NCBI GenBank assembly: GCA_964412635.1
Contig: CAYPPQ010000003.1
Coordinates: forward strand, 24,491-88,490
Length of the DNA stretch: 64,000 nucleotides
Reading direction: 5' to 3'
Source: an uncultured Planctomycetia bacterium
GTDB lineage: Bacteria > Planctomycetota > UBA8108 > UBA1146
In this document: one piece after another, positions 31,897 to 63,574 of the stretch
Layout of the letters: every line of letters begins with the position of its first letter
How positions within the stretch are numbered: position 1 is the first letter of the stretch
Notes under the pieces: model-generated
Databases searched by the model: none
What the model was told of the DNA's origin: nothing
The model's input: only the letters and a program-made list of their open reading frames with translations
Program-made: the position numbers and the translations under genes

Positions 31897-31941
31897 CCGT
31901 TGTGTTCTCCCTTGATTCGGTCTAACAACATCCATGATGTT

Positions 31942-33225: not shown

Positions 33226-33228
33226 TCG

Positions 33229-34671
33229 TCAGAACCTCACCAGAAACTCGGTTCGAATCCCATTGTTGGTGGCACCGCCCTCGTCCATCTTCGTGTAGCC
33301 ATCGCATTGCAGCATCACTCTATTCGAGAGTTTTTCCTGGAATCGGATTCCCACCGCTCCCGAAGCGGGGTCACTTCCCTCCGTCGGTGTTCTTCCACCC
33401 AGTTCGACGATGAAGTTACGTTCTCCTCCGGAAAGGACCCACTGGTAGCCGACTGCGCCGCCGAAGGAGCGATCTGCTCGATTGCCCAGTGCTGGCTTGA
33501 AACTGCCCAGTCCTGCCGCAGCGAAGAGGATGCCGGCCTTGCCCAGGGGACCACCCTTGGCCGGTGATCTTCCCGCTGAGGAGAACTCATCGATGCCGAG
33601 GAAGAGAGTGCCGTAGGCGTTGTCATCGGTCCCAAAAGGAGTGGTCGATGCTTCGGCGAAGAACAGCATCCCGTCACTGACCTGAGCGTTGTCCGCTTCC
33701 GATGCGGATGAAGCACACCAGCGAATTGTAGTGTTGAAGGTGCGCCCCCATTTCTTGATCCGTTGCGATGATCCGAGTCCAGCGAAGATCCCATCACCTC
33801 CCTGGTCGATCGGCGCAGTGACGGCGACGAGATCGGCATCGATGGTACTGGCGTAGGTGTCGGTCTCGGTGGAAATCCCGAACAACCTCGACTGTGTGGC
33901 AAGCTTGTTGTCATCGCGGTGCAGCTGTCCCCAGCCATAGATCATGGTGAGGCGCATATTGGACGCACCAGTGAAGGGGATGAAACGAGTGACTCCGAAA
34001 GCGTCCATGTTGTCGTTGACCAGGATGCCATCTTGCAGATCAACACCCCATCTGCCGAAACTGAAACCGTAATCGAGTTTCTTGTTTCCGGCCGGATCAA
34101 TTCGAGGGAACAACTCGCTGAGTTCTCCTTCGAAGAAGAAGGTGGTCAACTCGAGGCTGGTGTTGTCGTTCCAACCTTCGTTGGCTTCCGGTTCGATGGT
34201 GTAGCCGGTGAACTGGCCCTGGTCCTGAAGCGGTTGAAGTCCAACAAGAATTCTCTCGGTACCGGTGAATTGCAGGTTCGCAAAGAGATCGATGCGATTG
34301 GCCCATTCGATCTTCCGGTTGTCGTTCCCGGAGGGGTCGATGACGTTGATGCCGGTTCGTAGATTTCCGTAGACCCACAACGACGGTCGCCAGACAGCAC
34401 CGGTGGGAATGTCAAAGCCTCGCTCCAGTCGACCGGTGTCGAGAAAACCTGGACCCAGTTCCAGTAACGGTGGAGTCGGCTCGATCTGATCCTCGGGGAT
34501 CAGCGGGATGGGGTGATCTGGAAGTCTGCTGGGACTCTCTTCTTGCTGCGATAAGCCTTGCTGGCTGAAGAGGAGGAGTACCCCGCACAGGATCGTCACC
34601 TGCAGGCGCTGGAAGGGGGAAGAACTGCTCCACCCAGGAGATCTGGCGGGTTGGATCTGCACTGGATTCAA
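33229..34671 (-). CDS. Putative outer-membrane beta-barrel protein (porin-like) co-transcribed with multiheme cytochromes
   Basis: 480 aa. N-terminal signal-like LQVTILCGVLLLFSQQGLSQQ. Alternating amphipathic beta-strand pattern throughout. The C-terminus ...EFLVRF ends in Phe. A 4-nt overlap with the pentaheme gene. Confidence 0.5.
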   Translation of the reverse strand: MNPVQIQPARSPGWSSSSPFQRLQVTILCGVLLLFSQQGLSQQEESPSRLPDHPIPLIPEDQIEPTPPLLELGPGFLDTGRLERGFDIPTGAVWRPSLWVYGNLRTGINVIDPSGNDNRKIEWANRIDLFANLQFTGTERILVGLQPLQDQGQFTGYTIEPEANEGWNDNTSLELTTFFFEGELSELFPRIDPAGNKKLDYGFSFGRWGVDLQDGILVNDNMDAFGVTRFIPFTGASNMRLTMIYGWGQLHRDDNKLATQSRLFGISTETDTYASTIDADLVAVTAPIDQGGDGIFAGLGSSQRIKKWGRTFNTTIRWCASSASEADNAQVSDGMLFFAEASTTPFGTDDNAYGTLFLGIDEFSSAGRSPAKGGPLGKAGILFAAAGLGSFKPALGNRADRSFGGAVGYQWVLSGGERNFIVELGGRTPTEGSDPASGAVGIRFQEKLSNRVMLQCDGYTKMDEGGATNNGIRTEFLVRF

Positions 34672-36560: not shown

Positions 36561-36770
36561 GGTCACCTCTTTCCGATCAGGGGAAGAGTATTGAACCGAT
36601 GTCTTTCAAGAGGTATGTCGAAGTGATCACTCAAGAGATTCGATTCGATGTTCAACTCGGCTGCATACTACCAAGGCTGCCACGTCATGAGATGTTCCTT
36701 CTTCAGAATCAACCGTCCATCGCAGGTGGGTCGTAACTGGCAGCAGTGGCTCCTGCATCACAGTGCTGCT

Positions 36771-36794
36771 AGACTCTGCTGCAGACTCTGCTGC
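36771..36794 (+). promoter_or_regulatory. Tandem 12-bp direct repeat AGACTCTGCTGC x2 immediately upstream of the transporter RBS
   Basis: The sequence gctgctAGACTCTGCTGCAGACTCTGCTGCgaggag precedes ATG 36806. Confidence 0.3.
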
Positions 36795-36805
36795 GAGGAG
36801 TAGTG

Positions 36806-38122
36806 ATGATTCCCCGGTTTCCCCGGTTACAGGAAGCCCTTGCTGGTGGTCCACTCTGGCAATTGAGACTATTTGCCATGGTGACGGCGTTCTGCGTCTA
36901 TTTCTCGATGTACGCCTTTCGGAAGCCATTTGCAGCGGGAACCTATTCGGGAGCGGAGTGGGCGACTACCGGTCTGGGACTGAAGACGGTACTGGTGATC
37001 GGTCAGATCTTTGGTTACACCCTCGCGAAGTTTCTCGGCTCTCGAATCTGTTCCCAGGCGACCCGAGAACATCGGAGTCGCTGGTTGTTCGGACTGATCG
37101 TTGCAGCGGAATCCTGTCTGTTGTTGTTCGGAATGTTGCCCGATTTCTTGAAACCTGTGGCGATGTTTCTCAACGGTTTATCCCTCGGGATGATCTGGGG
37201 TCTGGTCGTGCGTTACCTGGAGGGTCGAAGGGCCAGCGAGGTGTTACTGGCCGGCTTGAGCTGTTCCTTCATCATCGCCAGCGGAGTGGTCAAGGATGTC
37301 GGGCGCTGGTTGATGTCCGATCATGGAATTCCCGAGATGTGGATGCCCGCCGCGACCGGATTGATCTTCTTGCTGCCCTTCTGGATCGCCTTGACCCTGC
37401 TCGATCATCTTCCCGAGCCGGACGCGCAGGATCAGCAGGAGAGATCGAAACGCCCCGAGATGGACTCCCACGATCGACGGGTTTTTCTTCGCACCTTTCC
37501 CCTCGGTTTTGCCCTGCTGCTGGTGGTGTACACACTGGTCACGGCATTTCGCGACTATCGAGATAACTTCGGAGACGAGATCCTCACCGAACTGGGATAC
37601 GGCGAGGCGAAGGGGATCTTTTCCAGCATCGAAGTCCCGGTGGCGTTCGTGGTGATCAGCGCACTGGCCCTCTTCAGCCTTGTACCTGGGGGAAGAAGGG
37701 GGTTGCTGGCTCTTTTCGCCATGCTGGGCGCAGGAGCAGTGACGATGTTGGTGTCGACGGAGTTGTTCTCGCAGGGCTCCCTCACCGGCAAGGAATGGAT
37801 GCTTGCCATCGGGATCGGATCCTATCTGGTCTATGTACCCTTCGGCTCGGTCCTCTTTGAACGCATCGCCGCCACCTTGAGGTTCAAGGGAAATGCGGTC
37901 TTTGCCATCATGGTGGCAGATGGCGTCGGCTATCTTGGATCGACGATCCTGCTGATCTATCAGGATCTCGGGTATTCGAGCGATGAGACCTCTGTCAATT
38001 TCATGACGGTCCTGACCCGGGTCACTGCGGTGGTGTGTGTGGTTGGATTTGCTGCTGCGGCGATCTACTTCGATCGACATTACATCCGAGGTCGAGAATC
38101 GACACCCGATGATCAGAAGTGA
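36806..38122 (+). CDS. Polytopic membrane protein, MFS-like transporter fold, family not recognised
   Basis: ~12 predicted TM in two 6-TM halves separated by a charged loop (DAQDQQERSKRPEMDSHDRR). GAGGAG lies 5 nt before ATG 36806. Divergent from the redox operon. Confidence 0.6.
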   Translation: MIPRFPRLQEALAGGPLWQLRLFAMVTAFCVYFSMYAFRKPFAAGTYSGAEWATTGLGLKTVLVIGQIFGYTLAKFLGSRICSQATREHRSRWLFGLIVAAESCLLLFGMLPDFLKPVAMFLNGLSLGMIWGLVVRYLEGRRASEVLLAGLSCSFIIASGVVKDVGRWLMSDHGIPEMWMPAATGLIFLLPFWIALTLLDHLPEPDAQDQQERSKRPEMDSHDRRVFLRTFPLGFALLLVVYTLVTAFRDYRDNFGDEILTELGYGEAKGIFSSIEVPVAFVVISALALFSLVPGGRRGLLALFAMLGAGAVTMLVSTELFSQGSLTGKEWMLAIGIGSYLVYVPFGSVLFERIAATLRFKGNAVFAIMVADGVGYLGSTILLIYQDLGYSSDETSVNFMTVLTRVTAVVCVVGFAAAAIYFDRHYIRGRESTPDDQK

Positions 38123-38131
38123 ATCCTACGA

Positions 38132-40081
38132 TTACCGTGGTGGAATGCTGACCACCGTTGATTTCTCGGCGATCACGATGGCACCATCGACCAGCTTCTT
38201 GGCCAGTGCTCGAGGTGAGAGTCGATAATCGAATCCGACATGCATCGTGTGAACGATCAGGTTCACCGGCACCGATTGAGAGATGAACTGCGTCTTGATC
38301 GAATACGGCCCCGTCCCGGTGAGCGATTCTCCAGCGACACGATATGCGGCAGTTCGATGACCCAGTGGCTCGATGGAACGGTGGTGTTTTCTTACCCCTC
38401 TGGGATGGCCATAAACGTTGTTGGGCCTGGAGGCGGGACGGATGAAGGGGAGGGCCGAGATCGAGTTGTTGGTGGTGAGTACCTGTTCTCGCTCTCCTCC
38501 ACGCACGTTTCTCGTCAGTACTCTGGATTGCAGATTGAACAGCTGTTCATCCAGTGGAATCTCACCGTTACGGACATAGAGGGACAAGCCATCCCTGACA
38601 TCTCCATTCGGGTCACGGTCCCCTGAGATGAAAACGAGGTCTCCTCGTGAATCGGTGACTTCGACCTGAAGAACAAATATCCGCCCGATCTTGTCGGCGG
38701 GGAGATTGTGTCCACTGGAGAGGTTCTTCACGTCGATCTCGAATTCGATCCCCTCCTCACCCGCCGAAGTGATACGGATCTCGGAAAGGCCGAAGCCTCG
38801 CTGCATCATCTCGATCCGCTGTTGCTTGGCCCACTCGAGTAAATCGAGCTGCTCATCGATGATCTCACGTGCGCTGTATCGATCATCGATGGAGTTCCAT
38901 GCTTCGGGAAATTCGAACTCTTCCGGGCAATCGTCTTCGAATTCGTCGGTACCCCAGCCGCTTTCCACATCGAAGAGGCACCATTCGGGAATCGATTTGA
39001 GATCCTGGGCCCGCTTGTTGATGGGGAATACACCAGGGTGGAGGAGGGAGTAGTCCGGGCCTGCGAAGAAATGATTCGTCAACTTCCTGGTGGAAGTCTC
39101 TTCTGCAGCCACCACCGCACCGGGGCCTTGCTGGTAACCGGAGGGGATTCCCTCTGTCTTACCCATGTGGCAATCGTTGCAGGAGATTCCCTGGGCCGCT
39201 GCGGGTGAGTTTCGATACTCGCTGAGAACATCATGAACACGGAATCCGTTCGGCGTCTGGACCTCGTGGCAGCTTCCGCAAAAAGCGGGATCTTCAAGTT
39301 CGGGAAACTTCTCTACCTCAGCGTGAATGTCGCGACCGACATCGTCGCGATCAGTATTTACCTGGAATGATTCTGGATCGCCGAGGACGCGCATCATTTC
39401 GGCATTACCCTGGACACCCTTCACCGGATCGAAGAGATCTCCCCTGTCGATTGCCAGCCTTCCCATGACTTTTCGGTAGGGAGCACTCATGCGATGGCAG
39501 ACGACACACGTAACTCCCTCTCTGGAGATGGGATGTCGTTCGATGTTCGAGAGACTGGAGGGCTCACCGATGTCGGATCCGACGGGCGTATGGCAGCGAA
39601 CACAAAAATCACCGGTTGTGGAACTGGTTCCCTTGTTCAGGGCGATTTGCATCGACAACATCAGCGGACTCAACTGAGAGTATGCGTGCTGAGAAACGGA
39701 CCACTCTCGATATTGCTTGGGGTGGCAACTTGCACATCGGTGTGCCGGGGGGAATTCGTTCTCTGCAAGGAGAAGCGCATGAGCCTCGAGAGAATTGTCG
39801 TCGGATCCCTGGTGGGCAGGTGTATTCTCTGAAGGGTTCTCGGGTGAAGGTTTTTCATCAGCGAGTAAGTCATCATCGAGTAAGTCATCATCGAGCAGGT
39901 CATCATCGAGCAGATCATCTTCCAGCAGATCATCCTCCTCGACAACCGGTGCTGGAGGAGGATCCTGAGAATGGGCCTGCTGTTGTGATCCAAGTTGGTT
40001 CTCTGATGGTCCCGCAAGGATGAAGAGACCGAGCAGGGTCCAGATGAGTGCAGTGTTGTTTGGCGGCTTGCTGGCGGGCAT
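38132..40081 (-). CDS. Pentaheme c-type cytochrome, paralog of 34668..36560, with N-terminal (DDLL)n repeat
   Basis: Co-linear ~70% identity with the first paralog. CASCH, CVRCH, CVVCH, CGSCH, CNDCH. Signal MPASKPPNNTALIWTLLGLFILAG from ATG 40081, with an AAGGA upstream. Confidence 0.8.
   Translation of the reverse strand: MPASKPPNNTALIWTLLGLFILAGPSENQLGSQQQAHSQDPPPAPVVEEDDLLEDDLLDDDLLDDDLLDDDLLADEKPSPENPSENTPAHQGSDDNSLEAHALLLAENEFPPAHRCASCHPKQYREWSVSQHAYSQLSPLMLSMQIALNKGTSSTTGDFCVRCHTPVGSDIGEPSSLSNIERHPISREGVTCVVCHRMSAPYRKVMGRLAIDRGDLFDPVKGVQGNAEMMRVLGDPESFQVNTDRDDVGRDIHAEVEKFPELEDPAFCGSCHEVQTPNGFRVHDVLSEYRNSPAAAQGISCNDCHMGKTEGIPSGYQQGPGAVVAAEETSTRKLTNHFFAGPDYSLLHPGVFPINKRAQDLKSIPEWCLFDVESGWGTDEFEDDCPEEFEFPEAWNSIDDRYSAREIIDEQLDLLEWAKQQRIEMMQRGFGLSEIRITSAGEEGIEFEIDVKNLSSGHNLPADKIGRIFVLQVEVTDSRGDLVFISGDRDPNGDVRDGLSLYVRNGEIPLDEQLFNLQSRVLTRNVRGGEREQVLTTNNSISALPFIRPASRPNNVYGHPRGVRKHHRSIEPLGHRTAAYRVAGESLTGTGPYSIKTQFISQSVPVNLIVHTMHVGFDYRLSPRALAKKLVDGAIVIAEKSTVVSIPPR
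39856..39945. repeat. 6 x 15-bp tandem repeat (tcatcatcgagNaNg) encoding (DDLLx)n in the paralogous cytochrome
   Basis: The sequence shows tcatcagcgagtaag, tcatcatcgagtaag, tcatcatcgagcagg, tcatcatcgagcaga, tcatcttccagcaga, tcatcctcctcgaca. Confidence 0.8.
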
Positions 40082-40228
40082 TACCGATCCTTCGATTTCG
40101 TCTCGCATTCGATGTGGGTCAATTTTGTTATGGAAAATCAGCATAGGTCAAAACGACTGGAAACCGAATGAAATCCATCACGGATACAGATCTCAAGGTA
40201 CAAAAACAGTAGTTCGAGGGCGGAGGAA

Positions 40229-41860
40229 TTGATGAATCATCTGTTGTCCTTTTGCTTGTTGAGTTTTCTTCCACTGCTCGAGTCTCCTGATAGCCAGCCG
40301 CCCCGCCCCGACATCATCGTCATCATGGCCGATGACATGGGCTGGTCCGATATCGGTTGTTTTGGTGGTGAGATCGAGACTCCAAATCTCGATGAACTTG
40401 CCGCCGGCGGTGTTCGTCTGAGCCAGTTCTACAATACCGCTCGCTGCTGTCCGACGCGTGCATCACTTCTGACCGGACTCTATGCCCATCAGGCGGGTGT
40501 CGGCCACATGGTGTACGACGGTGGATCGCCCGGCTATCGAGGGGAACTTTCGCCGACGACGGCGACCATCGCTGAACACCTGACCGCTGCAGGTTACCGC
40601 ACCTACATGTCGGGCAAGTGGCATGTCACTCACAACCTGGGCAAGGCAAAGCAGCGGATCGAGCCGAAGAAGAGGACCAACTGGCCCATCGATCGCGGCT
40701 TTCAGCACTTCTTTGGAACCATACACGGCGGTGGATCCTACTACGATCCGGTTTCCTTGACCCGAGGCGAACAGTATCTGCCGGCTCCGGAAGGGGACTA
40801 CCACTACACCGATGCTATCAGTGAAGAAGCCGCGAAATTCATCGAGCAGAATGCCTCCCATAGCAAGGCGGCTCCGATGTTCATGTATGTCTCGTATACC
40901 GCTCCCCACTGGCCTCTCCACGCTCGCCCCGCTGACATCGAACGGGTCAAGGGGCGTTATCGAGACGGTTGGGATGCGATGCGAGAAGCGCGACTGAAAC
41001 GTCAGCGCGACATGGGGTTGATCGATGAGGCGTGGCATCTCTCGCCTCGTGATTCTCGAATCAAGAGCTGGCAGGAGACGCCAGATCATCCGTGGCAAGA
41101 GCGGCGCATGGAGGTCTACGCCGCCCAGGTCGAACAACTCGATCGCGGAATCGGCCGCATCGTGGAAGCACTCGAGGCGCAGGGTCGACTTGAGAACACC
41201 TTGCTGCTGTTTCTGGCTGACAATGGTGGTTGTGCCGAGGAGATCACATCGGGCTGGAAGAGTTTGACCATCCCGGAAAAAACCCGTGACGGTCGCGAGG
41301 TGAAAAATGGCAACAACCCGAAGATGCTACCGGGTCCGGAGGTGACCTATCAGAGTTACGGATTGCCGTGGGCAAACGCCTCCAACACTCCTTTTCTGCT
41401 CTACAAGCACCATGTCCACGAGGGTGGGATCTCGTCACCGTTGATCGCGCACTGGCCGGCAGGATTACAGGGCAGGGGGGTGATCCACGATGGACCCGGT
41501 CATGTCATCGATCTGGTCTCGACCTGTCTCGATGCCGCACAGGCGACGGCGATCACGACACTGGATGGCGTCGCCATGCAGCCCATCGAGGGAGTGAGTT
41601 TGCTGCCGATTCTCTCGGGGCAGCCCGCCACCGAGCGTCCCATCTTCTGGGAGCACGAGGGTAATCGGGCAGTGAGACTGGGGCGCTGGAAGCTGGTCGC
41701 CGGTCACAACCGACCGTGGCAGTTGTTCGACATGGTGGCAGATAGAACCGAGTTGACCGATCTCTCCGGCCAGCGAGAGCAACTGGTGGAATCGATGAAA
41801 TCGATGTACGAGCAGTGGAGGCTCCGTGCAGGGGTGAAACCGTGGCCACTAAACCGTTGA
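40229..41860 (+). CDS. Formylglycine-dependent sulfatase (arylsulfatase family)
   Basis: CCPTRASLLTG (C-x-P-x-R) plus metal ligands DDMGWSD. Signal peptide MMNHLLSFCLLSFLPLL. GGAGG RBS. Confidence 0.85.
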   Translation: MMNHLLSFCLLSFLPLLESPDSQPPRPDIIVIMADDMGWSDIGCFGGEIETPNLDELAAGGVRLSQFYNTARCCPTRASLLTGLYAHQAGVGHMVYDGGSPGYRGELSPTTATIAEHLTAAGYRTYMSGKWHVTHNLGKAKQRIEPKKRTNWPIDRGFQHFFGTIHGGGSYYDPVSLTRGEQYLPAPEGDYHYTDAISEEAAKFIEQNASHSKAAPMFMYVSYTAPHWPLHARPADIERVKGRYRDGWDAMREARLKRQRDMGLIDEAWHLSPRDSRIKSWQETPDHPWQERRMEVYAAQVEQLDRGIGRIVEALEAQGRLENTLLLFLADNGGCAEEITSGWKSLTIPEKTRDGREVKNGNNPKMLPGPEVTYQSYGLPWANASNTPFLLYKHHVHEGGISSPLIAHWPAGLQGRGVIHDGPGHVIDLVSTCLDAAQATAITTLDGVAMQPIEGVSLLPILSGQPATERPIFWEHEGNRAVRLGRWKLVAGHNRPWQLFDMVADRTELTDLSGQREQLVESMKSMYEQWRLRAGVKPWPLNR

Positions 41861-47572: not shown

Positions 47573-49123
47573 TCACTCCTTCGCCGTCAGGCGATCGGGG
47601 TACGGGATCGCCTTCCCATCGCGGGTCGGCATCCCGGCACTGACCTGTCGGAGGTGCTCTCCCAGCAGTCTCGACAGTTGCTCGAGGATCTTCGGTTGTT
47701 GCAGGGCCACATCCTTCTTCTCTGACAGATCGTCTTCGAGGTGATAGAGGACCCGCTTCGGTGTCGGATGATGGTAGTAGATCATCTTCCAGGCTCCGAC
47801 CCGGACCGAACTGAAGGGCTGGATGCCCGGTCCCTTCGGACCCCAGAAGTGTGGCATGTGCCAGTAGAGGGGTCGCTTTCCATCGATGGCATCCTCATCT
47901 CCCTCGAGCAGGGGGACCAGGCTGATGCCATCGAGGGTGGCCCGATGGGGAGCGGGGCACTCGACTCCGGCCATCTGCAGGATCGTTGGGAAGTGGTCGT
48001 GGCTGATCACCGGGGTAGTACTGCTTCGCCCGCGAGCGACCGTTCCTGGCCAGCGGATCACCAGCGGAACCCTCGTTCCCCCTTCCAGTGCCGATCCCTT
48101 GCCGCTTGCCAGCGGGTGGTTGTGGGTGTGCGCCTTGCCGTTGCGGGCGTGGGCGGAGAGTCCGCCGTTGTCGCTGGTGAAGATGATGATGGTGTCGTCG
48201 AGGATCCCCAGCTGTTCCAGCGACTTGCGCAGCGTTGCGAGGGCACGGTCGACCGTCTCGATCATCGTCGCATAGGCCGCTTCCTTGGGGGGCAGTTTCT
48301 GGTAGCGAGGCAACCAGCGGGAGTTGGCGATGATGGGAGCATGAACCGCATAGGGTGAGAAGTGCAGGAAGAATGGCTTCCCCTTCGAATGAGCGGTACG
48401 GATCGCTGCCACCGACTCCAGTGCAAGTGCCTCGGTCAGGTAGATCTCCTTGCCGTGATACTTCTCCAGGCCGGGGATGTCCCATACCGACTTTCCCGGT
48501 TGCTGTGGATCCTTGGCAAAGTTGCGCTGGCCCCGGTAATCGGCGGGGCCGCCGGCACCGTGCCCTGCGATGTTGACATCGAAGCCGAGGTTCTGTGGGA
48601 ACTCTCCCTTGCTGCCCTTGGCTCCCAGGTGCGCCTTGCCGGCGTGGATGGTGTGGTAGCCCTTCTGCTGCAGCAGCCCGGGTAGTGTCACATCGCCGGG
48701 CTGCAGTCCGTTGACATTCCAGCTCGGCGGCGTCGTCCCTTCCCGGGCACGACCGGTGTCCTTGTCCTGGTGCAGGATCCAGTAGGTGATCTGGTTCCGT
48801 TGCGGCGAGCGACCGGTCATGACGCTGGTGCGAGTCGGAGTACACACCGGCGATGAGGCGTAGGCATCGGTGAAGGTGATCCCCTCGGCGGCGAGTCGTT
48901 GCAGCTGTGGAGTGCGGTAGGCGTCGCGGTGAGGAGGACCTTGCCGGTGGAGGCGCAGGGAGGTGTCCTGCCAGCCGAGGTCGTCGACGATGAAGAAGAG
49001 GATGTTGGGAGGCTTCTGATCGGTCGCATCGGCCGCGTCACACCAGCAGGTGCCACACCAACAAACGCAGGTGAAACAGATCCACAGCACGAACAGTCTC
49101 GATGTCAGGAGGCTCGACTTCAT
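47573..49123 (-). CDS. Formylglycine-dependent sulfatase (arylsulfatase family)
   Basis: SPVCTPTRTSVMTGR C-x-P-x-R motif. Signal MKSSLLTSRLFVLWICFTCVCWC from ATG 49123. The ORF track extends to 49384 through a GC-rich leader. Confidence 0.85.
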   Translation of the reverse strand: MKSSLLTSRLFVLWICFTCVCWCGTCWCDAADATDQKPPNILFFIVDDLGWQDTSLRLHRQGPPHRDAYRTPQLQRLAAEGITFTDAYASSPVCTPTRTSVMTGRSPQRNQITYWILHQDKDTGRAREGTTPPSWNVNGLQPGDVTLPGLLQQKGYHTIHAGKAHLGAKGSKGEFPQNLGFDVNIAGHGAGGPADYRGQRNFAKDPQQPGKSVWDIPGLEKYHGKEIYLTEALALESVAAIRTAHSKGKPFFLHFSPYAVHAPIIANSRWLPRYQKLPPKEAAYATMIETVDRALATLRKSLEQLGILDDTIIIFTSDNGGLSAHARNGKAHTHNHPLASGKGSALEGGTRVPLVIRWPGTVARGRSSTTPVISHDHFPTILQMAGVECPAPHRATLDGISLVPLLEGDEDAIDGKRPLYWHMPHFWGPKGPGIQPFSSVRVGAWKMIYYHHPTPKRVLYHLEDDLSEKKDVALQQPKILEQLSRLLGEHLRQVSAGMPTRDGKAIPYPDRLTAKE

Positions 49124-49380
49124 GTACGGCAGTCTACCGCTTCTCGACGCCCGAGGCAGTGGCAGTGGATTCGCCATCAACGAGGTCTCTCGACCAGTGC
49201 CCGCACCGCCAGTAACGCTCCCAGGGCCAGGTACGGCCACGGCGAGCTGGAGTCGAGACTGCTGGCGTTGCCCCTCTCCAACCTCAGCAGACCGAGGGTC
49301 AGCAGTGCGAGGGAGAGGATGGCGCAGATGGGGCGCATCGGATCGCGCAGGAACGGTTGAGATCGGAAAGGAGGCAACGG

Positions 49381-49755
49381 TCACTCCTTGCTGTCGGCTT
49401 CTTCGTGCTCCTCGGTGATGTCATCGATGGGGACATGGAACGGTCGCAACAGAACTCCGAGGCCGACCAGCAGCGCCAGGCTCATCGGTTGCCACCAGAG
49501 CAGTTTCGACTCGATGGCGGAGAACAGGATCAAGGAAGTGAACAGGAGCACCGTTCCCGGAAAGAAATCGAGAGGCTCTACATCGGTGTCGGTGGACAGC
49601 AAGGTCTGCCACAGCAGGTGCAAGATGGCAGTGATCAGGAGAATGGTGCACAGGAAAATTGGCGCGAGTTCCAGATCAAATGGGGCCAGAAGCAAGAGGG
49701 ATAGGAGGGTCGCCAGGACGACGATGACGGCGCCTACAATCAGAGATCTACTCAT
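49381..49755 (-). CDS. Small integral membrane protein (3-4 TM), hypothetical
   Basis: ATG 49755 is preceded by AAGGAGAAG and overlaps the upstream stop (ATGA). Hydrophobic LIVGAVIVVLATLLSLLLLAP, FLCTILLITAILHLL, LLFTSLILFSAI. Confidence 0.55.
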   Translation of the reverse strand: MSRSLIVGAVIVVLATLLSLLLLAPFDLELAPIFLCTILLITAILHLLWQTLLSTDTDVEPLDFFPGTVLLFTSLILFSAIESKLLWWQPMSLALLVGLGVLLRPFHVPIDDITEEHEEADSKE

Positions 49756-55228: not shown

Positions 55229-55774
55229 ATGAATGAGCAATCAGAATCCCCCCTGGCAGGACAGCAACCGCGGTTGCTGGTCCTCGATGTCGATGGCGTC
55301 CTCACCGACAACACCCTCTGGATTTCCGAGGAGGGTCGCGAGATGAAGGCGTTTCATGTCCCCGATGGAGCAGGCCTGCGCTGGCTCCTGGAGGAGGGTG
55401 TCGAGGTGGCATGGATCTCCGGTCGCGCCTCGGAGGTGACTCGTAAGCGAGCCGCCGAACTGGGGATCGATGAGGTTCACACCGGCATCCGCGACAAGGC
55501 CACTTGCCTGCAGGAACTGCTCGAACGACTTTCGATCTCCGCTGCGGACACCGTCTACATCGGCGACGATCTCATCGACCTGCCACCGATGGCGCTGGTG
55601 GGAACGGCGGTGGCGGTGGCGGATGCGCAGCCGGTCGTGCTCGAGATGGCGGCCCACGTGACCCGCAACCGAGGGGGCCACGGGGCGGTTCGTGAGGTGT
55701 GCGAGTGGATCCTGAAATCGCTGGGAGCGTGGTCTGATCGGATCCACCGCGAGATGTCAGGGGACTCCCCTTGA
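55229..55774 (+). CDS. kdsC: 3-deoxy-D-manno-octulosonate 8-phosphate phosphatase (HAD family, KdsC)
   Basis: HAD motif I LLVLDVDGVLTDN, motif II ISGR, motif IV GDDLIDLP. Size and motifs match KdsC. Confidence 0.8.
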   Translation: MNEQSESPLAGQQPRLLVLDVDGVLTDNTLWISEEGREMKAFHVPDGAGLRWLLEEGVEVAWISGRASEVTRKRAAELGIDEVHTGIRDKATCLQELLERLSISAADTVYIGDDLIDLPPMALVGTAVAVADAQPVVLEMAAHVTRNRGGHGAVREVCEWILKSLGAWSDRIHREMSGDSP

Positions 55775-58700
55775 GCCGGATCACCTTCTTCCTGGGGGTT
55801 TTTTCCATCGGCCTGGTGGCGTTCCTGTTCTTCACGGGACAGTTCCAGGGGACTCCTGAGGAGCCTCTGGAGGGGTTCGATCTGGAACCGCTGCTCCCCT
55901 CCGACCAGAACCGTGTGGTCCATCATTCCCACGATTACTCGCTGGGTCGCTGGCGCTATACCCTGCGGGGACGCATCGATCTCAGCTCGGGGGTAGTGCT
56001 TTCCCCCGACACGCTCATCCGTCAGAAGGACCTGCTCGATGTCACCATCGAGATGCCGGTCTACGGAGTCGACCCGGGGGAACCCATCGACTTCATCAAT
56101 TTCGAGGCGGATCGCTTCGTCGGAGATCCGGGGGGGGATGAAGCGCAGGTTGTCGGCAACCTGCGCGCCGTCAGTTCCAGTGGCAAGGAAGAACTGCGCA
56201 CCCAGGATCTTCGTATCCGCTTCATCGACGGCGAGGATGTTCGCATCGATGGTTCCTCACCGGTGCAGGTGAACTGGCCCGAACTGCAACTGTACGGTGC
56301 CTCCGGATTGACCGGCTCTCTCGGATCCGGTTCGGGGCTCAGCAGTTTGCAGTTTTTACCGCCGCTGATCATCCTCAAGAAGGGGACCGCGGACGGCGCG
56401 GCGGGAGCGGCTGCCCAGGTCGGAATCGACGGCACACCGGGACGGCAGATTCGCATCCAGTGCGACGGTCCGATGACGCTGAGTGGTTCACAGGAGGGAG
56501 CGAGATTCGAGGGCGGAGTCTATATCTACGAGTCCGATCCAGAGGATTCCATCGACCCCACCTCGTCCCCTCCAGGGCGTCATATCTACTCTGATTACCT
56601 GGACTTACAGCTCGAATCAGAATCGCGCAGCCTGGTCAAAATCGAATCCAGGGCGGAGAAAAACCCCATCACCATCCACCTCGGTGGAGGGATCCGTGTC
56701 GAGGGGCAACAGCTGCAGTGGGAGAAGCATCAGCAGAATGTCAGGCTCTCCGGCGGCGTGGTGATCCACAGTAATCTGGGCAACTTCGAGGCGGACGAGG
56801 CACTGGTACTGACGACCCAATCGAAGTGCACCATCCGTGGCGATGTGAAGGGTGGAATCCGCGCACCATCGATCTCTCCCGGGAAGGTGTCTGACTCCGA
56901 TGAAGAAGATGTGAACTGGTCGGTGATCGCAGACATCGCCGAACTGGAGTTCCAGTCGGGACAACTCAAGGACCTGGTGGCTCGCGGCAAGCCGGGGCAG
57001 TCGGTACAGATTCGTGAACTGTCCGAGGGTGGTGCGATCATCGATGGAGATCGGATGCACTGGCGGCCGGCGGAGGAGCAGCTGGAGGTCCTCTCCGAGG
57101 AGGGACGTCGAGCCATCTTCACCGCCGGTGAGAACCGCATCGAGGCCAACTCTGCGGCCCTCTCTGTGGGATCGCCGCGTCTGCAGTTTCGGGGCGGAAT
57201 CCGGGCGACCCTGGCTGAACTGCCCGGTGGGTCCCAATCGACCCTTCCTGGGTGGCTTGGCGAGGATTCGACCAGTTCCATCGAGGCGGAGGGATTGGTC
57301 CTGACCTGGGATGCCCAGCAGCGTCTCAAGAAGCTGGAAGCAGAGGCGGGGGAAGAGCCGTTGCGGCTGGTGGTCGACGGGGACGAGCCGATGGAACTGC
57401 TCGGCTCGCGGCTCGAGTGGCGCGGTCTCGACGGCATGGTGAATATCGATGGATCGGGTCGTCAGAGATTGAAGCTGGGAAGCCGCGCCGATCTGCAGGC
57501 GGACCGCTTGCACCTGTCTCTCGTCGAGAGTCAGGCGGTGGGTACCGGTTCGGTGCAGGGAACACTGCGCCGCAGCGCCGCCGATGATGAGGATCCGGGG
57601 GTTGCGGTACGCTGTCACCAGCTGGTGATCTCCCTCGCCGGAGATGAGACTGGCGCGGGCGAGTCGGCAGCGGCTGGAAACTCTGCCGCCGCTGCCCAGG
57701 TGAAACCAGGAGGAGTGGTTGCGGTACGGGCACTGAGTCTCGAGGGGCAGCAGGTGGAGATTGACGACGGCACCATCCTGGCCCGCAGCGAGGAGTTGCT
57801 ATGGGACGCCCTGAATCAACGTTACCGCTTTCAGGGTAAGGGTTTACAGCAGGTCGAGGTGGGTCGTGGAGGGTCCGCTCCGGACCTGATCGAGGCGGAG
57901 ATGATCACCCTCGATCGTATCGAAGAGGTCACGCAACTGGTGGGTAGTGCGCGCATTCGCATGTACCTCGGCAATGCCGGAGCCGCGCCATCGGCGGCAC
58001 CACAGCAGGCCACCGTCGGCGACAAGATGGCGTGGAACCTGACCGCGGAACGCATCGATGCGCGCCTCGATCTATCGCAGGAAAACGACACCTCCTTGTA
58101 TCCGACGAAGTTGATCGACGTGGTCGCTCGCGATGGCGTGCGACTGGTGCAGAAAGAGGGTGGGCTCGAGTTTCGCGGACAGGATTGTCGGTGGGACCAG
58201 GTCCACCAGCGCCTGGTTCTCTCCTCCGAAGATGGTCAGGGTCTGCAGACCTTCGTTCGTGGCGCGGATCCGCGACAGGACGAGGTGGTGGCTCGTGAGG
58301 TGGTAGTGGTTCGATCGACGCCAGCGGAAGAGGGAGCTGGCGAGCGACTCGAGGTGTTGCTGTCGTCGGTTCTGAGTGCCACCGTTCACCTGGAGCCCAC
58401 CGCCGAGGACGAGGTGGGCAAGTTCGACATGAGAGCGGAAGAGTTGCTGCTGGTGCTGAGAGAGCCGCTGGCCGGGGGAACCCTCAGCCCCCACGAGGTG
58501 CTGGCATGGGGGGCGACCGACCTTCGAGGAGGCCCCTACCGGATCCTTGCCGAGCGAGCCCGGGTGCTGGTTCGCAATCGCAGCGTCGAACTGGAGGGTG
58601 GCGAACAGCAACCGGTGCAGGTGCTGCGAGACGGCACCTCCGATCTACCGCCGTCGAGATCGGTGAAGATGACCTGGGGACCGCGCGGATACCGGGTACA

Positions 58701-58794
58701 GAACCTGCCTCGTGGCGGTGGCTGGTCACTGGGAGAGGTCGATTCGGTCCTCGAGCGAATGGACCGCAAGAGTCATCGACCGCGCCAGCGCTGA
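55771..58794 (+). CDS. Giant (1007 aa) membrane-anchored periplasmic protein with repeated OstA/LptA-like beta-jellyroll modules; candidate fused/expanded LptC-LptA
   Basis: TTG start overlapping the kdsC stop (TTGA). N-terminal TM FFLGVFSIGLVAFLFF. Repeated OstA-like modules, each seen as a [DE]G..(L/M).W..........L.G.V signature (e.g. EGQQLQWEKHQQNVRLSGGVVI, DGDRMHWRPAEEQLEVLSEEGRRAIFTAGENRIEAN). Position mirrors E. coli kdsC-lptC-lptA. Confidence 0.45.
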   Translation: MSRITFFLGVFSIGLVAFLFFTGQFQGTPEEPLEGFDLEPLLPSDQNRVVHHSHDYSLGRWRYTLRGRIDLSSGVVLSPDTLIRQKDLLDVTIEMPVYGVDPGEPIDFINFEADRFVGDPGGDEAQVVGNLRAVSSSGKEELRTQDLRIRFIDGEDVRIDGSSPVQVNWPELQLYGASGLTGSLGSGSGLSSLQFLPPLIILKKGTADGAAGAAAQVGIDGTPGRQIRIQCDGPMTLSGSQEGARFEGGVYIYESDPEDSIDPTSSPPGRHIYSDYLDLQLESESRSLVKIESRAEKNPITIHLGGGIRVEGQQLQWEKHQQNVRLSGGVVIHSNLGNFEADEALVLTTQSKCTIRGDVKGGIRAPSISPGKVSDSDEEDVNWSVIADIAELEFQSGQLKDLVARGKPGQSVQIRELSEGGAIIDGDRMHWRPAEEQLEVLSEEGRRAIFTAGENRIEANSAALSVGSPRLQFRGGIRATLAELPGGSQSTLPGWLGEDSTSSIEAEGLVLTWDAQQRLKKLEAEAGEEPLRLVVDGDEPMELLGSRLEWRGLDGMVNIDGSGRQRLKLGSRADLQADRLHLSLVESQAVGTGSVQGTLRRSAADDEDPGVAVRCHQLVISLAGDETGAGESAAAGNSAAAAQVKPGGVVAVRALSLEGQQVEIDDGTILARSEELLWDALNQRYRFQGKGLQQVEVGRGGSAPDLIEAEMITLDRIEEVTQLVGSARIRMYLGNAGAAPSAAPQQATVGDKMAWNLTAERIDARLDLSQENDTSLYPTKLIDVVARDGVRLVQKEGGLEFRGQDCRWDQVHQRLVLSSEDGQGLQTFVRGADPRQDEVVAREVVVVRSTPAEEGAGERLEVLLSSVLSATVHLEPTAEDEVGKFDMRAEELLLVLREPLAGGTLSPHEVLAWGATDLRGGPYRILAERARVLVRNRSVELEGGEQQPVQVLRDGTSDLPPSRSVKMTWGPRGYRVQNLPRGGGWSLGEVDSVLERMDRKSHRPRQR

Positions 58795-58899: not shown

Positions 58900-59526
58900 A
58901 TGAAGAGATGGAAACCACTTCCGCTGCTGCTGCTGATCCTCGGTACCGTTGGTACGGCGGGCTGCTCCAAGGTGGAGAAGAGGATCGATCCCGAGGTCGA
59001 TATCGGTGCGGCCCAGGTGCTGGTGGTGCCGTTCCAGCAGAAGACTCGATCTCCGTCGGTGCTGCGCTGGCACTACGAATCGGAGCTGGGAAACACCATG
59101 GCCAGGGCGATTCGAATGCAGTTGCCCGCCTCCTGTGAAGATGTCCAGCTGGTCTCCGACGAGCGTGTGAGGGATCTGGTGTTCCACACCGATACCGACA
59201 CGGTTCCATGGAGTGAAGTGGGAGCGAAGGTGGGTGCCAGCCATGTCCTGACCGGTCGGGTGGATCTTCTCAGCTTCCGTGATCGGCGCAGCGTGGGGAT
59301 GCTCCAGGGGCACATGCAGGGCTACTGGGAACTGATTCGAGTGTCCGACAACCGATCGATCTGCCGCCGGGAATTCGATATCAGGGTGCCAGAGAACCCG
59401 GAAACCGGGCGTATCTACGTTTCCTTCGAGACCTCCGAGAACGAGGTCCAGGGGGCTCTTGTGGCTCGTTTGGCCCGCCAGGTGTCGACGGTGCTGTGTG
59501 GGGATACCGTCAATCGGATCGATTGA
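58900..59526 (+). CDS. Lipoprotein, hypothetical
   Basis: MKRWKPLPLLLLILGTVGTAGCS lipobox. GGGAG RBS. I recognise no family. Confidence 0.6.
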   Translation: MKRWKPLPLLLLILGTVGTAGCSKVEKRIDPEVDIGAAQVLVVPFQQKTRSPSVLRWHYESELGNTMARAIRMQLPASCEDVQLVSDERVRDLVFHTDTDTVPWSEVGAKVGASHVLTGRVDLLSFRDRRSVGMLQGHMQGYWELIRVSDNRSICRREFDIRVPENPETGRIYVSFETSENEVQGALVARLARQVSTVLCGDTVNRID

Positions 59527-60022: not shown

Positions 60023-60745
60023 CTATCGGCCTTCTTCGAGGCGCTCCGCCAGGAACTCGGGGAGTCCCGAATTGCGGATTTTTTCCTGCACCTTTTCGAT
60101 GTCATATTCGACCCTGAATCGCTCCACCCGTCCCTCTTCGGGCTGGTAGATGACGAAGCTGGCGGCGGGGTTGCCGTCGCGGGGCTGGCCGACACTTCCG
60201 ACGTTGACGATCCCCTGCAGCCCCTCGTGAAGTTGCACCACCGCATCGGTGTTGTAGCGAATCACATCGCTGAGGAGAAAGGTGACCGGTACGTGGGAGT
60301 GTCCGATGAAGCAGACTGGAGTCTGGAGTTGCTGGAAGGAGAGGTGAGCGTCCCAGGTGGTCTGGATGTAATCGAATAGATCCGGTTGATCGAGGCTGCC
60401 ATGGACCAGGGAGAAGTGCTCCTCCTGGTGTACCAGGGGCCAGTTGCGAAGGATCTCCAGCTGGTCCTCGTCGAGCTGGGAGCGGGTCCACAGCGTTGCC
60501 TGGCGAGCGATGGGATTGAAGTAGTCGAGATCGAGGAGGTCGAGGACTGCGTGTTCATGATTGCCGGCGACGATCACCTCGCAGCGTTCCACCACCATTT
60601 GAAGACAGGCGGCGGGATCGGGACCGTATCCGACCACATCCCCCAGACACAGGATGCGATCGACATCCTGTGCCTCGACCTGCTCGAAGACCGCATCGAG
60701 GGCTTCTTGGTTGCCGTGAATGTCGGAGATGATGGCGATTTTCAC
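60023..60745 (-). CDS. Metallophosphoesterase (YfcE/MJ0936-like)
   Basis: GTG 60745 gives (M)KIAIISDIHGN, followed by LCLGDVVGYGP and VAGNHE. The ORF track's upstream extension to 60913 runs through the repeat region. Confidence 0.7.
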   Translation of the reverse strand: MKIAIISDIHGNQEALDAVFEQVEAQDVDRILCLGDVVGYGPDPAACLQMVVERCEVIVAGNHEHAVLDLLDLDYFNPIARQATLWTRSQLDEDQLEILRNWPLVHQEEHFSLVHGSLDQPDLFDYIQTTWDAHLSFQQLQTPVCFIGHSHVPVTFLLSDVIRYNTDAVVQLHEGLQGIVNVGSVGQPRDGNPAASFVIYQPEEGRVERFRVEYDIEKVQEKIRNSGLPEFLAERLEEGR

Positions 60746-60860
60746 GCTTTTCCCTGTCTCGCAATGGCACGTTGGTTGGTGTCGCTCTCTCGCCATTCTA
60801 GTGACTTCAGGTACCCGGGAACAAGTGGAGAAGCGGTTTCCTGGGCATATTCCGCTTATC

Positions 60861-60995
60861 GGCCCAAATTGTTCCCCGGGGAACATCCGGGGGGGGCGTC
60901 CCCCTGATTCCAATTGTTCCCTGTGGAACCATCGGGAAAGAGGGCGCTACCGGACAACTTGTTTCCCGGGGACCAGGCGGATACTCTCCGGTTTC
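60861..60995. repeat. Three tandem 45-bp repeats each carrying a parS-like palindrome (core TGTTCCCCGGGGAACA), 40-175 bp upstream of parA
   Basis: The three copies share the core caa(T/C)TTGTTCCCnGgGGAaC: copy 1 60861-60905 (core at 60870-60885, a perfect 16-bp palindrome), copy 2 60906-60950 (TTGTTCCCTGTGGAACC) and copy 3 60951-60995 (TTGTTTCCCGGGGACC). Confidence 0.55.
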
Positions 60996-61035
60996 CAGGA
61001 GCCCACGGGCATTTGCAGGGGGAAGGGAAGCGACG

Positions 61036-61821
61036 ATGGCGAGGATCATGGCGGTTGCCAGCCAGAAGGGAGGGGTGGGGAAGACCACCACTGCCGTCAA
61101 TCTGGCCAGTTACTTCGCTCAGGCAGGCCTTTCCAGCCTCCTTGTCGACCTCGATCCCCAGGCCAACGCCACCTCGGGGATCGGTGTGGAGTCCCCCCCC
61201 CACTCGCTGCTCCCGGGTCTGCTGGAGGGTACCCTCCAGTGGCAAGGGGTGGTCAAAGAGACCTGTGTACCGCGGCTGAAGTGTATCCCCAGTACCCTCA
61301 ACCTGGAGGTGCCGGTGGCTTCAGAGCTGGCCCGGGGGGAAGGTGCCAGGAGACTGCGAGAGGCGTGGAAGCAAGCGGAGCCGGGGGAGCTGGACGTGGT
61401 CCTGCTCGACTGTCCCCCATCGCTGGGCCCCCTCACCGACCTGGCACTGCACATCGCCGATTCGGTGCTGGTGCCGGTCCAGTGCGAGTACTTCGCCATG
61501 GAGGGTCTGGCCCAGGTGCTGGAACTGGTGCGCCGGGCGGAGCACTCCATCGACAGGAAGATCCCCCTGGAGGGGTTGGTCCTGACCCTCTTCAGCTCCG
61601 ATGTGGATCTGTGTCATGAGGTGGCAGAAGAGGTGCGTCGCTACTTCCCTGACGAGACGATGGAGACGCCGATTCTGCGTGATCCAACCCTTGCGGAGGC
61701 GGCCAGTCATGGTCAGCCCATCTGTATCTACGACCCACGCTCCTCGGGAGCGTGGTCCTACATGAACCTCGCGAAGGAGGTCCTCGAGCATGAGTGGACG
61801 GAAACTGGGACGTGGGCTTGA
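61036..61821 (+). CDS. parA: Chromosome partitioning ATPase ParA/Soj
   Basis: Deviant Walker A SQKGGVGKTTTAVNLA, then LLVDLDPQANAT. 261 aa. Confidence 0.9.
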   Translation: MARIMAVASQKGGVGKTTTAVNLASYFAQAGLSSLLVDLDPQANATSGIGVESPPHSLLPGLLEGTLQWQGVVKETCVPRLKCIPSTLNLEVPVASELARGEGARRLREAWKQAEPGELDVVLLDCPPSLGPLTDLALHIADSVLVPVQCEYFAMEGLAQVLELVRRAEHSIDRKIPLEGLVLTLFSSDVDLCHEVAEEVRRYFPDETMETPILRDPTLAEAASHGQPICIYDPRSSGAWSYMNLAKEVLEHEWTETGTWA

Positions 61822-62713
61822 TGCCCTGATCCGGCGTACGGAAGAGATTCCAGCCGAGGTCGAGTCCCCCACCGAAGGCGACGAACAGACCGTTGCGGAT
61901 GGCAGTGTGGTGGTGCAACTGGACCCCACCGTGATCCAGGCCAACGGGCAGCAACCGCGGACCCATTTCGACGATGATGCCATCGACGAGCTGTCCCGAT
62001 CCATCGCAACCGACGGCATCATCCAGCCGCTGGTGGTGAGGGCCACCAAGGACGGCAGTTATGAACTGGTGGCGGGAGAGCGGCGGTTGAGGGCGGCATT
62101 GAAGCTGGGTCTGGGCGAGGTGCCCGTCATCCTGCGTACCATCGATGACCGGCAGATGCTGCCGCTGGCGCTGGCCGAGAATATTCAGAGAGAGGATCTC
62201 AACCCCATCGAACTGGCCAGGGCGTACCGAGCCCTGCAACAGTCCTACGCACTGACCCAGGAGCAGCTGGCGAAGCAGGTCGGAAAGAAGCGCTCGAGCA
62301 TCGCCAACACCCTGCGCTTCCTGGAGCTGGAAGATTCGATCCAGGAGAGTCTGATGGATCGTGTCATCAGCGCAGGTCACGCCAAGTTGTTGCTGTCGGT
62401 GAGCGATGCCAAGGAGCGGAGCCGCTGGCACAACAAGGTGGTGTCTAACAATTGGACGGTCCGTGATCTGGACGAGGCGTTGCGCGGCGGAGAGAGCGGA
62501 ACTCCAGCTTCTGCAAAGCCGAATCGTGGTGGCAAGAAGCCGTCGGGAGCTCACGTCGAGGCGGAGGAGACCCGTCTCGGACTGGCGCTGGGAACCAGGG
62601 TTCAGGTGGTGGAAAGCGGTTCCGGAGGGCGCGGACGCATCGTCGTTGAATTCTACTCCAACGAGGACTACGAGCGGATTTCTCGCATCATCGTCGATGG
62701 ATCGGGCAACTGA
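61790..62713 (+). CDS. parB: Chromosome partitioning protein ParB/Spo0J
   Basis: MSGRKLGRGLDALI. ParB box IQPLVVR and GERRLRAA. HTH region. Overlaps parA by 32 nt. GAAGGAGG RBS. Confidence 0.9.
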   Translation: MSGRKLGRGLDALIRRTEEIPAEVESPTEGDEQTVADGSVVVQLDPTVIQANGQQPRTHFDDDAIDELSRSIATDGIIQPLVVRATKDGSYELVAGERRLRAALKLGLGEVPVILRTIDDRQMLPLALAENIQREDLNPIELARAYRALQQSYALTQEQLAKQVGKKRSSIANTLRFLELEDSIQESLMDRVISAGHAKLLLSVSDAKERSRWHNKVVSNNWTVRDLDEALRGGESGTPASAKPNRGGKKPSGAHVEAEETRLGLALGTRVQVVESGSGGRGRIVVEFYSNEDYERISRIIVDGSGN

Positions 62714-62797
62714 GGCGCAATTCGTGTGGCGCGATGGTGCGCAGGGATGGAATGCTTGGGAAGCCCCTCTCAGCACCCATTCTCGTGGAGGCCTACG

Positions 62798-63574
62798 ATG
62801 ATACTCACCGCCGTTTTGCTCGCCTTGTTGATCCTGATGCTCTGGGGTGTCGGACGATTGAGGGGGGACCTGCTGACCCGCGGTCCCGTCAAGCTGGCAC
62901 TCTTTCCCGGACTCATCTTCGATGCGATGGCCCGGACCCTCTCCTGTCTCGCCACCGCCACGCCGGTGATGGGGATCTCGCCGTGGAAAGATGAAACTCC
63001 GTTCCTGGTCGAGAGCGAATGCTCACTGAAGAGGATCGGGGTTCCCTTGACGACGGTGCTGCGTGTCGGCGTCCTGTTCGTCGCCTTCTCTTCCACCGTC
63101 TTCTATCTGCCAGAGGTGATGTCGGTGGTTCCGGCACCGGGGTCGTTGCAGCAATCCCTCGAATTCAGTTTCAGTGCCTTTGGCGGCAAGTTGTTATCGG
63201 CCCCCGTCGATCTTCTTTCTTCGGGAATTGCGACGTGGGGGATCCTCGCCTGGCTGGGCGCGATGGTCCTGGCAGCAGGGTTGTCAGGGCGTGAGAGCCT
63301 GGCTGCACTGGGACTGGTGGCACTGCTTGCAGGGGCGCTGGAGGGTGCTCACTGGCTCGGTCTTCGTTTCGGGACATTCACCAATGGGTGGTTCCTGAGG
63401 CGCTTCTACGAGGATGAGGCGGGTCGTTCCCTGGTCCTGCTGGTGCTGGTAACGAGCGCGGTCCTGGCGCTGCTGGCGACGATGCATCTGGTGCCGATGC
63501 TGGTCGACAAGATCCGTCCTCGACCGACCCAGGATTACGATGCGGAAGCGGATCAACTGGTCTCGCCATTCTGA
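62798..63574 (+). CDS. Integral membrane protein, hypothetical (~6 TM)
   Basis: ATG 62798 is preceded by GGAG. The hydrophobic profile shows ~6 TM. No family recognised. Confidence 0.5.
   Translation: MILTAVLLALLILMLWGVGRLRGDLLTRGPVKLALFPGLIFDAMARTLSCLATATPVMGISPWKDETPFLVESECSLKRIGVPLTTVLRVGVLFVAFSSTVFYLPEVMSVVPAPGSLQQSLEFSFSAFGGKLLSAPVDLLSSGIATWGILAWLGAMVLAAGLSGRESLAALGLVALLAGALEGAHWLGLRFGTFTNGWFLRRFYEDEAGRSLVLLVLVTSAVLALLATMHLVPMLVDKIRPRPTQDYDAEADQLVSPF

Follow-up and report, generated by a model that had tools for sequence, protein, structure and literature searches.

The locus raises the question of what the short repeated elements directly upstream of its parA and parB genes are: centromere sites (parS) for the partition protein ParB, operators of the two divergent promoters, or units of a tandem-repeat array. 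We studied these elements in the window, which is the whole stretch of DNA analysed, 64,000 nucleotides in length, and in the corresponding loci of related genomes. Judged from sequence and position, two of the elements, here called sites 1 and 2, are very probably chromosomal parS sites of a planctomycete whose central bases have drifted.

The elements lie in a 287 bp intergenic region (60749-61035) between parA and a divergent metallophosphoesterase gene on the minus strand (60023-60748; GTG start, VKIAIISDIH...; Pfam: Metallophos), which is syntenic in all relatives. The parA gene (61036-61821, plus strand) encodes a Soj-type ATPase of 261 amino acids with matches to the Pfam families AAA_31 (1.4e-41) and CbiA. 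Its top NCBIfam match is ParA_partition, which stays under the model cutoff (100 versus 180 bits). The parB gene (61790-62713, plus strand) overlaps parA and encodes a chromosomal ParB of 307 amino acids with the Pfam domains ParB_N, HTH_ParB and ParB_C. The protein has the N-terminal peptide LGRGLDALI, the CTP-binding motif GERRLRA and the helix-turn-helix segment GKKRSSIANTLRFLEL...SAGHAK, and it matches PDB structures of Spo0J, ParB and Noc at about 1e-42 to 1e-45. Among the NCBIfam models, parB_part is matched above its cutoff, and nucleoid_noc (TIGR04285) is matched with 219 bits, below its cutoff of 315. By these sequence features, the adjacent ParB is predicted to be a standard chromosomal ParB of the CTPase type. 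The nearest relatives in the databases are MAGs annotated as Planctomycetota.

The gene content of the window is chromosomal, with rsmB, fmt, scpA, tatA, ppk, ppx, sulfatase genes and multihaem cytochrome genes. Neither dnaA nor dnaN is found in the window, and the GC skew is uniformly positive without a turn. An Rfam search of the window returned no RNA family. The gene directly 3' of parB (62726-63574) encodes 282 amino acids in the window and about 258 in relatives (at about 11009-11785 in L161-L176); it is kept in every clade locus, where it is followed by a gene for a TolC-like outer membrane efflux protein (OEP). Neither Pfam nor NCBIfam gives a match for it, and it may act with the partition system as a lineage-specific partner. 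Two further genes, 55771-58794 (1007 amino acids) and 58900-59526 (208 amino acids), show conserved synteny with scpA, tatA and parAB in the majority of clade loci and are likewise without a Pfam or NCBIfam match.

Besides these genes, the window contains a multihaem cytochrome cluster (26293-40144) with Cytochrome_C554 and MtrC-like domains, which also includes a cNMP-binding 4Fe-4S protein and a FAD/NAD/2Fe-2S reductase. A similar cluster directly adjoins the par region in L162, indicating that the locus has been rearranged. Convergent ppk (polyphosphate kinase) and ppx/gppA (exopolyphosphatase) genes are found at 9332-12939, and sulfatase genes at 40229-41860 and 47573-49384. Beyond the window in the same genome, about 7.5 kb downstream of parB, there is a giant RHS/YD-repeat gene of more than 2000 amino acids (L172, 17492-20924).

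Site 1, located in unit 1 (60870-60885), has the sequence TGTTCCCCGGGGAACA and is the perfect 16-bp palindrome that the original prediction had described. Its arms, GTTCC and GGAAC, are canonical and its centre is CCGG in place of ACGT, so that both half-sites have a C at the 'position 6' of Jalal et al. Site 2, in unit 2 (60915-60930; TGTTCCCTGTGGAACC), also has canonical arms, with the centre CTGT; of its two half-sites, the right one is the canonical heptamer GTTCCAC and the left one GTTCCCT. Unit 3 (60960-60975; TGTTTCCCGGGGACCA) is a pseudo-site that resembles parS but departs from the pattern GTTCC-N4-GGAAC at two arm positions. A fourth copy, which had not been listed before, is partial and inverted (60810-60825; reverse complement CTTGTTCCCGGGTACC). 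It resembles a half-site and is seen in the inverted repeats I5, I7 and I8.

Units 1 to 3 follow each other at start-to-start distances of exactly 45 and 45 bp and sit 60-166 bp 5' of the parA start codon (ATG, 61036), which agrees with the predicted placement of the cluster directly 5' of parA, with parA and parB now identified by Pfam. The description as three tandem 45-bp repeats applies to the spacing only: the units share a core of about 26 of the 45 nucleotides (77-81% identity) and are otherwise unrelated, and no repeat was reported by Tandem Repeats Finder (TRF) at a score of at least 30. A conserved 10-mer, CTTATCGGCC (60855-60864), is positioned directly 5' of site 1; in relatives it reads ATTATCGG(C/A)C, i.e. 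(A/C)TTATCGG(C/A)C, and on the minus strand it resembles a -10 element, GATAA(G/T). Between sites 1 and 2 there is a poly-G run (60890-60897), which differs in length among contigs with identical ParB and has one G more in L174. The spacer of L161 is wholly rewritten, yet a short inverted repeat of a G-run and a C-run is kept.

Site 1 has three mismatches to the consensus parS TGTTNCACGTGAAACA, which corresponds to 13 of 16 positions when N is counted or to 12 of the 15 specified bases, where the original prediction had given 12 of 16. Consensus parS searches that allow at most two mismatches would miss these sites. Compared with the parS of the Pseudomonas/Myxococcus type, TGTTCCACGTGGAACA, site 1 matches at 14 of 16 positions and site 2 at 13 of 16. 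The arms of both sites match the consensus in full, and what is lost is the central ACGT. No canonical parS was found elsewhere in the 64-kb window at two mismatches or fewer.

The palindrome of site 1, searched with up to three mismatches, has four matches in the window compared to 0.40 expected, a number that none of 100 shuffles reached. The pattern GTTCC-N4-GGAAC, which was derived independently, from the clade, has two exact matches in the 64 kb compared to 0.09 expected, both in the intergenic region, and there is none in the next 10 kb past the window. The scan for scattered copies that had been proposed with the original prediction thus covers about 74 kb of the genome, on a contig of 185 kb, and within this scope the two exact matches upstream of parA are the only ones. 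One of the matches with three mismatches, at 34487 (TGATCCTCGGGGATCA), was treated as chance because its arms are wrong. We also rejected a parS-like 20-mer, ATGGTTCCTGGGCGAACATC, which lies outside the window in the OEP gene, 3 kb downstream of the parB start (L172: 13004-13023); it codes for FDGSWANIG and its likeness to parS is lost at synonymous positions in relatives, so it was judged to be a coincidence.

We fetched loci for relatives of the ParB from 100% down to 45% identity, 15 of which include the region upstream of parA. GTTCC-N4-GGAAC is found before parA in all 15 loci, approximately 100-200 bp upstream, with exactly two exact matches in 14 of them and one in L175, which is at a contig end. 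In the roughly 300 kb of flanking sequence of the relatives there is only one further exact match. The gene order rsmB-fmt-scpA-...-tatA-metallophosphoesterase, then parA-parB-258aa-OEP on the other side of the intergenic region, is kept as well; between scpA and the metallophosphoesterase gene are a HAD hydrolase, the unknown genes of 1007 and 208 amino acids and tatA.

The most distant relatives, L169 (ParB identity 52%), L175 (49%) and L176 (45%), have perfect canonical parS of the sequence TGTTCCACGTGGAACA. In the nearer relatives the centres vary in a graded series. L166 has ACGT and ATGT, L168 has CCGT twice, L170 has TCGT and ACGG, and L164 has CCGT and ACGA. ACGG is found twice in each of L162, L081, L085 and L171, TCGG and ACGG occur in L082, and CCGT and CCAT in L084. 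The window shares its pair CCGG and CTGT with L161, its 94% relative. The arms are invariant at every site. Among the 58 half-sites, 33 have A at position 7, 22 have C and 3 have T, and G does not occur there.

In a comparison of the window with L161, the identity is 95-100% for the two parS sites and 56% for the spacer between them. Site 1 is identical in L161; site 2 is identical at 20 of 20 positions, and it sits at the position of the second parS of 14 of the 15 related loci. Invariant arms together with sites that are conserved across a diverged spacer argue that both sites are orthologous to canonical parS and under selection. At the sequence level this indicates purifying selection on both sites, with the arms kept and the centre drifting. 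The ancestral centre, as judged from the related loci, is ACGT, which would since have drifted to CCGG and CTGT in the lineage of the window.

The distance from site to site is 37-66 bp in the clade. It is 44 bp in L161, 45 bp in the window and 46 bp in a contig with identical ParB and one extra G, and these differences among near-identical contigs are due to the variable poly-G run. As the spacing varies, the 45-bp period is without demonstrable meaning. In L171 (9034-9078) there is an insertion of about 45 bp directly 5' of the first parS, with degenerate half-site copies (TGTTCTGCGGGAC and twice TGCTCCACGG), which suggests that local duplication or slippage can create new sites.

To relate the drifting centre to the protein, we numbered the residues as in Caulobacter ParB, which is the window residue plus 5. 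The numbering was checked against an alignment with Noc and the Noc spacing in PMC7383237, for which the Noc residues Q158, K164, K169 and R186 were used. In this numbering the ParB of the window has Q162, G170, K171, K172, R173, N178, T179, E184, G201 and K204. Six of the eight parS-contacting residues of Caulobacter ParB are identical here, including R173 and G201, and the other two are S172K and R204K, each of which is common among other ParBs. Jalal et al. (2020) call R173 and G201 absolutely conserved in ParB, and both are present in every clade member. R173 hydrogen-bonds guanine 1 in Caulobacter ParB (Jalal et al. 2020), which corresponds to the invariant G of GTTCC. The 'position 6' of the ParB/Noc literature corresponds to positions 7 and 10 of the 16-mer. 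By analogy with the known proteins, G201 is expected to face this base pair without a side-chain contact and thus cannot read the drifting base. An R173 that reads position 1 and a G201 that leaves position 6 unread match the observed pattern of a frozen position 1 and a free position 6.

In the clade alignment, no ParB residue was found to change along with the centre of the sites. Lineages with canonical sites and lineages with variant sites share the recognition helix KKRSS(I/V)AN(T/S)LRFL and the GHAK motif. The changes S172K, A184E and R204K are clade-wide and are seen in 9-20% of 80 unrelated ParBs. At the equivalent of Caulobacter position 184 (residue 179 of the window ParB) the clade has E or D; in the 80 unrelated ParBs this position is K or R in 52 and D or E in 7, and Noc has a 'permissive' lysine. 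Wild-type Caulobacter ParB is described as parS-preferring, and all 17 ParBs tested preferred parS over the Noc binding site NBS (Jalal et al. 2020).

As a control set we used the ParBs returned by a scan of genome contigs with the clade ParB alignment, which are at most 48% identical (best tblastn segment) and nearly all from other phyla. In these 115 par loci of other phyla (1.68 Mb) there are 77 matches to GTTYC-N4-GRAAC, 62 of which have an ACGT centre. Seven plausible sites have one half changed (TCGT three times, CCGT twice, ACGA and ATGT), and a change in both halves was found in none of the 77 parS-like matches. From these counts, the centre variation of the clade and the doubly changed site 1 are uncommon, not different in kind. 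We tentatively suggest, at slightly less than even probability, that the clade ParB is naturally relaxed at position 6, so that centres drift among A, C and T with the four specificity residues unchanged, and that site 1 is a functional natural hybrid of the G1/C6 type. If so, site 1 would be a DNA intermediate on the path from parS to NBS that is bound by a ParB with R173 and G201. DNA-first drift, not protein-first change, would then be a testable route of centromere and specificity evolution.

Besides the two parS sites, the alignment of the upstream regions (A2) contains further conserved islands. In order, it shows ATTCTAGTG, (A/C)TTATCGG(C/A)C, the first and second parS, CTTG, GATAC(T/C)CT and the start codon. 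ATTCTAGTG (60795-60803) is kept in relatives down to 65% ParB identity, and in the same range the CTTG island widens to CTTGTyTC. We assign a putative parA promoter to 60959-60987 on the plus strand, with the -35 element TTGTTT (60959-60964), a 17-nt spacer and the -10 element TACTCT (60982-60987; TAnnnT). A putative promoter of the metallophosphoesterase gene is assigned to 60795-60824 on the minus strand, with the -35 element TTGTTC (60824-60819), an 18-nt spacer and the -10 element TAGAAT (60800-60795). A scan of the intergenic region for sigma-70 and terminator consensus sequences gave no match, at the parA promoter because the -35 element agrees at only three of six positions, so both assignments are drawn from conservation only. 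The islands at 60855-60864 and 60795-60803, which on the minus strand are GATAAT-like and TAGAAT, may be -10 elements of the divergent gene.

Unit 3 overlaps the -35 element and the spacer of the putative parA promoter, and the inverted copy overlaps the -35 element of the putative divergent promoter. In the window and in L161, unit 3 has the parS-like arms GTTTC-N4-GGACC, with a different centre in L161. At this position the relatives have CTTGTyTC and a spacer unlike parS, often GTCTC-N3-GAGAC. The inverted copy is present only in the lineage of the window, where it is kept in L161, and is missing from more distant relatives. Judged by its sequence, unit 3 is at best a weak, lineage-specific ParB site. 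Both unit 3 and the inverted copy may serve autoregulation as weak operators for ParB, or they may be a coincidence of similar -35 contexts, and we consider it possible though doubtful that ParB binds them. Of the operator array for ParA/ParB autoregulation that had been offered as a second possibility in the original prediction, unit 3 alone fits.

Taken together, sites 1 and 2 have canonical parS at the same two positions in distant syntenic relatives, which makes them positional orthologues of parS. They adjoin a Soj-type ParA and a cognate chromosomal ParB with a helix-turn-helix, a GERRxR motif and the N-terminal peptide, and they are rare and non-random within approximately 74 kb. The prediction of a lineage-specific centromere or ParB nucleation cluster is thus supported by positional orthology for units 1 and 2 only. 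Dimers of the adjacent ParB would bind the invariant GTTCC/GGAAC arms via their helix-turn-helix, with the arginine equivalent to R173 reading the G of GTTCC. ParB would then bind CTP through GERRLRA, close as a clamp and slide onto the flanking DNA. Sliding ParB could thereby cover the parAB operon and the adjoining genes and form a partition complex, which nucleoid-bound ParA-ATP would move, stimulated by the LGRGLDALI peptide of ParB. Binding, clamp loading and segregation are inferred here from membership of the protein families.

The sites could also be decaying relics, in which case the double centre change would have weakened site 1, and perhaps site 2, and ParB would load mainly at canonical parS elsewhere. 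R173 and G201 are kept here without a compensating ParB change, doubly substituted centres are absent from the 115 control loci, the tested members of the family prefer parS over NBS, and the genome sequence inspected is only about 74 kb. Further parS sites, perhaps canonical ones, may lie in other parts of the genome. We nevertheless regard decay as unlikely, since the arms are invariant in all lineages and the sites are conserved with L161 across a spacer of 56% identity, which points to ongoing selection. Moreover, site 2 keeps one canonical GTTCCAC half, and the Thermus site discussed below shows that a C half-site is functional. As most clade members have only centre variants at this locus, a whole subclade would have to decay in parallel. 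The location in a 287-bp divergent intergenic region, with unit 3 and the inverted copy overlapping both putative -35 elements and with another inverted repeat, GTCTC-N3-GAGAC, covering the -35 and spacer of parA in relatives, would fit operators without a centromere role that control the two promoters and are bound by another dimeric transcription factor or only by ParB. However, sites 1 and 2 are located some 35-90 bp 5' of the putative -35 element and thus off the core promoter, their arms equal those of parS, and their distant orthologues are perfect canonical parS. There is also no adjacent regulator gene in the loci, and chromosomal ParAs are without a DNA-binding N-terminal domain, all of which makes pure operators quite improbable.

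Still less probable is that site 1 is an NBS-like site, read at its central CCCGGG by a Noc-like ParB paralogue and not by the partition ParB. Its centre CCCCGGGG does have the NBS-type C:G pair at position 6, engineered ParB variants with R173 and R201 prefer hybrid sites, and the best PDB and NCBIfam scores of the adjacent ParB are to Noc. Yet position 1 is the parS-type G and not A, and the adjacent ParB has G201 and not R201, E and not K at position 184, a nucleoid_noc score under the cutoff (219 versus 315 bits) and an N-terminal peptide of the ParA-interacting kind. A second ParB-like gene was not found in the window, and the central bases vary freely in relatives, which a reader of the R201 type would forbid. 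The exact 45/45-bp spacing of three units is what suggests an array of genuine 45-bp tandem repeats as in sopC or iterons, i.e. a plasmid-style centromere or replication element that arose by duplication. This reading has next to no probability and is effectively refuted by the negative TRF result and the variable spacing: nothing beyond the 26-nt core is related, near-identical contigs have 44 or 46 bp and the clade 37-66 bp, relatives have two units and not three, and the context (rsmB, fmt, scpA, ppk, ppx) is chromosomal.

With sites 1 and 2 as drifted parS, a centromere would be identified for an uncultured Planctomycetota lineage. Within the literature searched, we found no paper on parS in Planctomycetota and, as regards the exact variant sequences, only the Thermus site. 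Drifted centromeres of this kind can be missed by consensus parS searches. The syntenic series from ACGT via ACGG/CCGT to CCGG with an unchanged recognition helix is a compact natural dataset, which gauges the tolerance of ParB at the base pair that sets parS apart from NBS. The specificity model of Jalal et al. (2020) could be put to a binding test with oligonucleotides of the variant sites. Apart from the drifted centres, the locus suggests ordinary partition biology.

Several known systems share single features with this locus. The centromere of the F plasmid, sopC, consists of tandem repeats, each with a short inverted repeat. The exact 45/45-bp spacing resembles these repeats, whereas in sopC and in iterons whole units are homologous at a fixed period and here 26 of 45 nucleotides are alike. 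The half-parS heptamers GTTCCAC and GTTTCAC of Pseudomonas aeruginosa ParB are another example: site 2 keeps one GTTCCAC half, and the inverted copy (60810-60825) is likewise a lone half-site-like element. In P. aeruginosa, ParB binds half-parS throughout the genome, at hundreds of sites, without nucleating spreading, whereas the elements described here all lie within a single intergenic region.

The NBS of Bacillota, TATTTCCCGGGAAATA, shares with site 1 the central CCCGGG with C:G at position 6 in both halves. By definition, position 1 of an NBS half-site is A and position 6 is C, TATTTCCC (PMC7383237), and position 1 is G at all sites here. Noc has Q173, K179, K184 and R201, where the ParB of the window has R, T, E and G. 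Furthermore, NBS are scattered and found in Bacillota, whereas the sites described here cluster at parAB, outside Bacillota.

In Thermus thermophilus, ParBc specifically binds the sole native parSc, TGTTTCCCGTGAAACA, as demonstrated in competition EMSA and through foci in E. coli that depend on parS (PMC4409726); the site is also listed in Table 1 of PMC7022226. According to our alignment, ParBc also has R173 and G201. Thermus parSc has C for A at position 6 in one half, compared to both halves in site 1. Like the sites described here, it is positioned directly upstream of parA, as a single site inside gidB, whereas the window has two or three sites in an intergenic promoter region.

The parS of the TGTTCCACGTGGAACA type is known from Pseudomonas putida, P. 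aeruginosa and Myxococcus xanthus, and its outer arms, TGTTCC...GGAACA, are identical to those found here. It likewise adjoins parAB with a Soj-type ParA and a CTPase-type ParB and is present in few copies. The difference is in the centre, which is ACGT in that type and CCGG in site 1 and CTGT in site 2.
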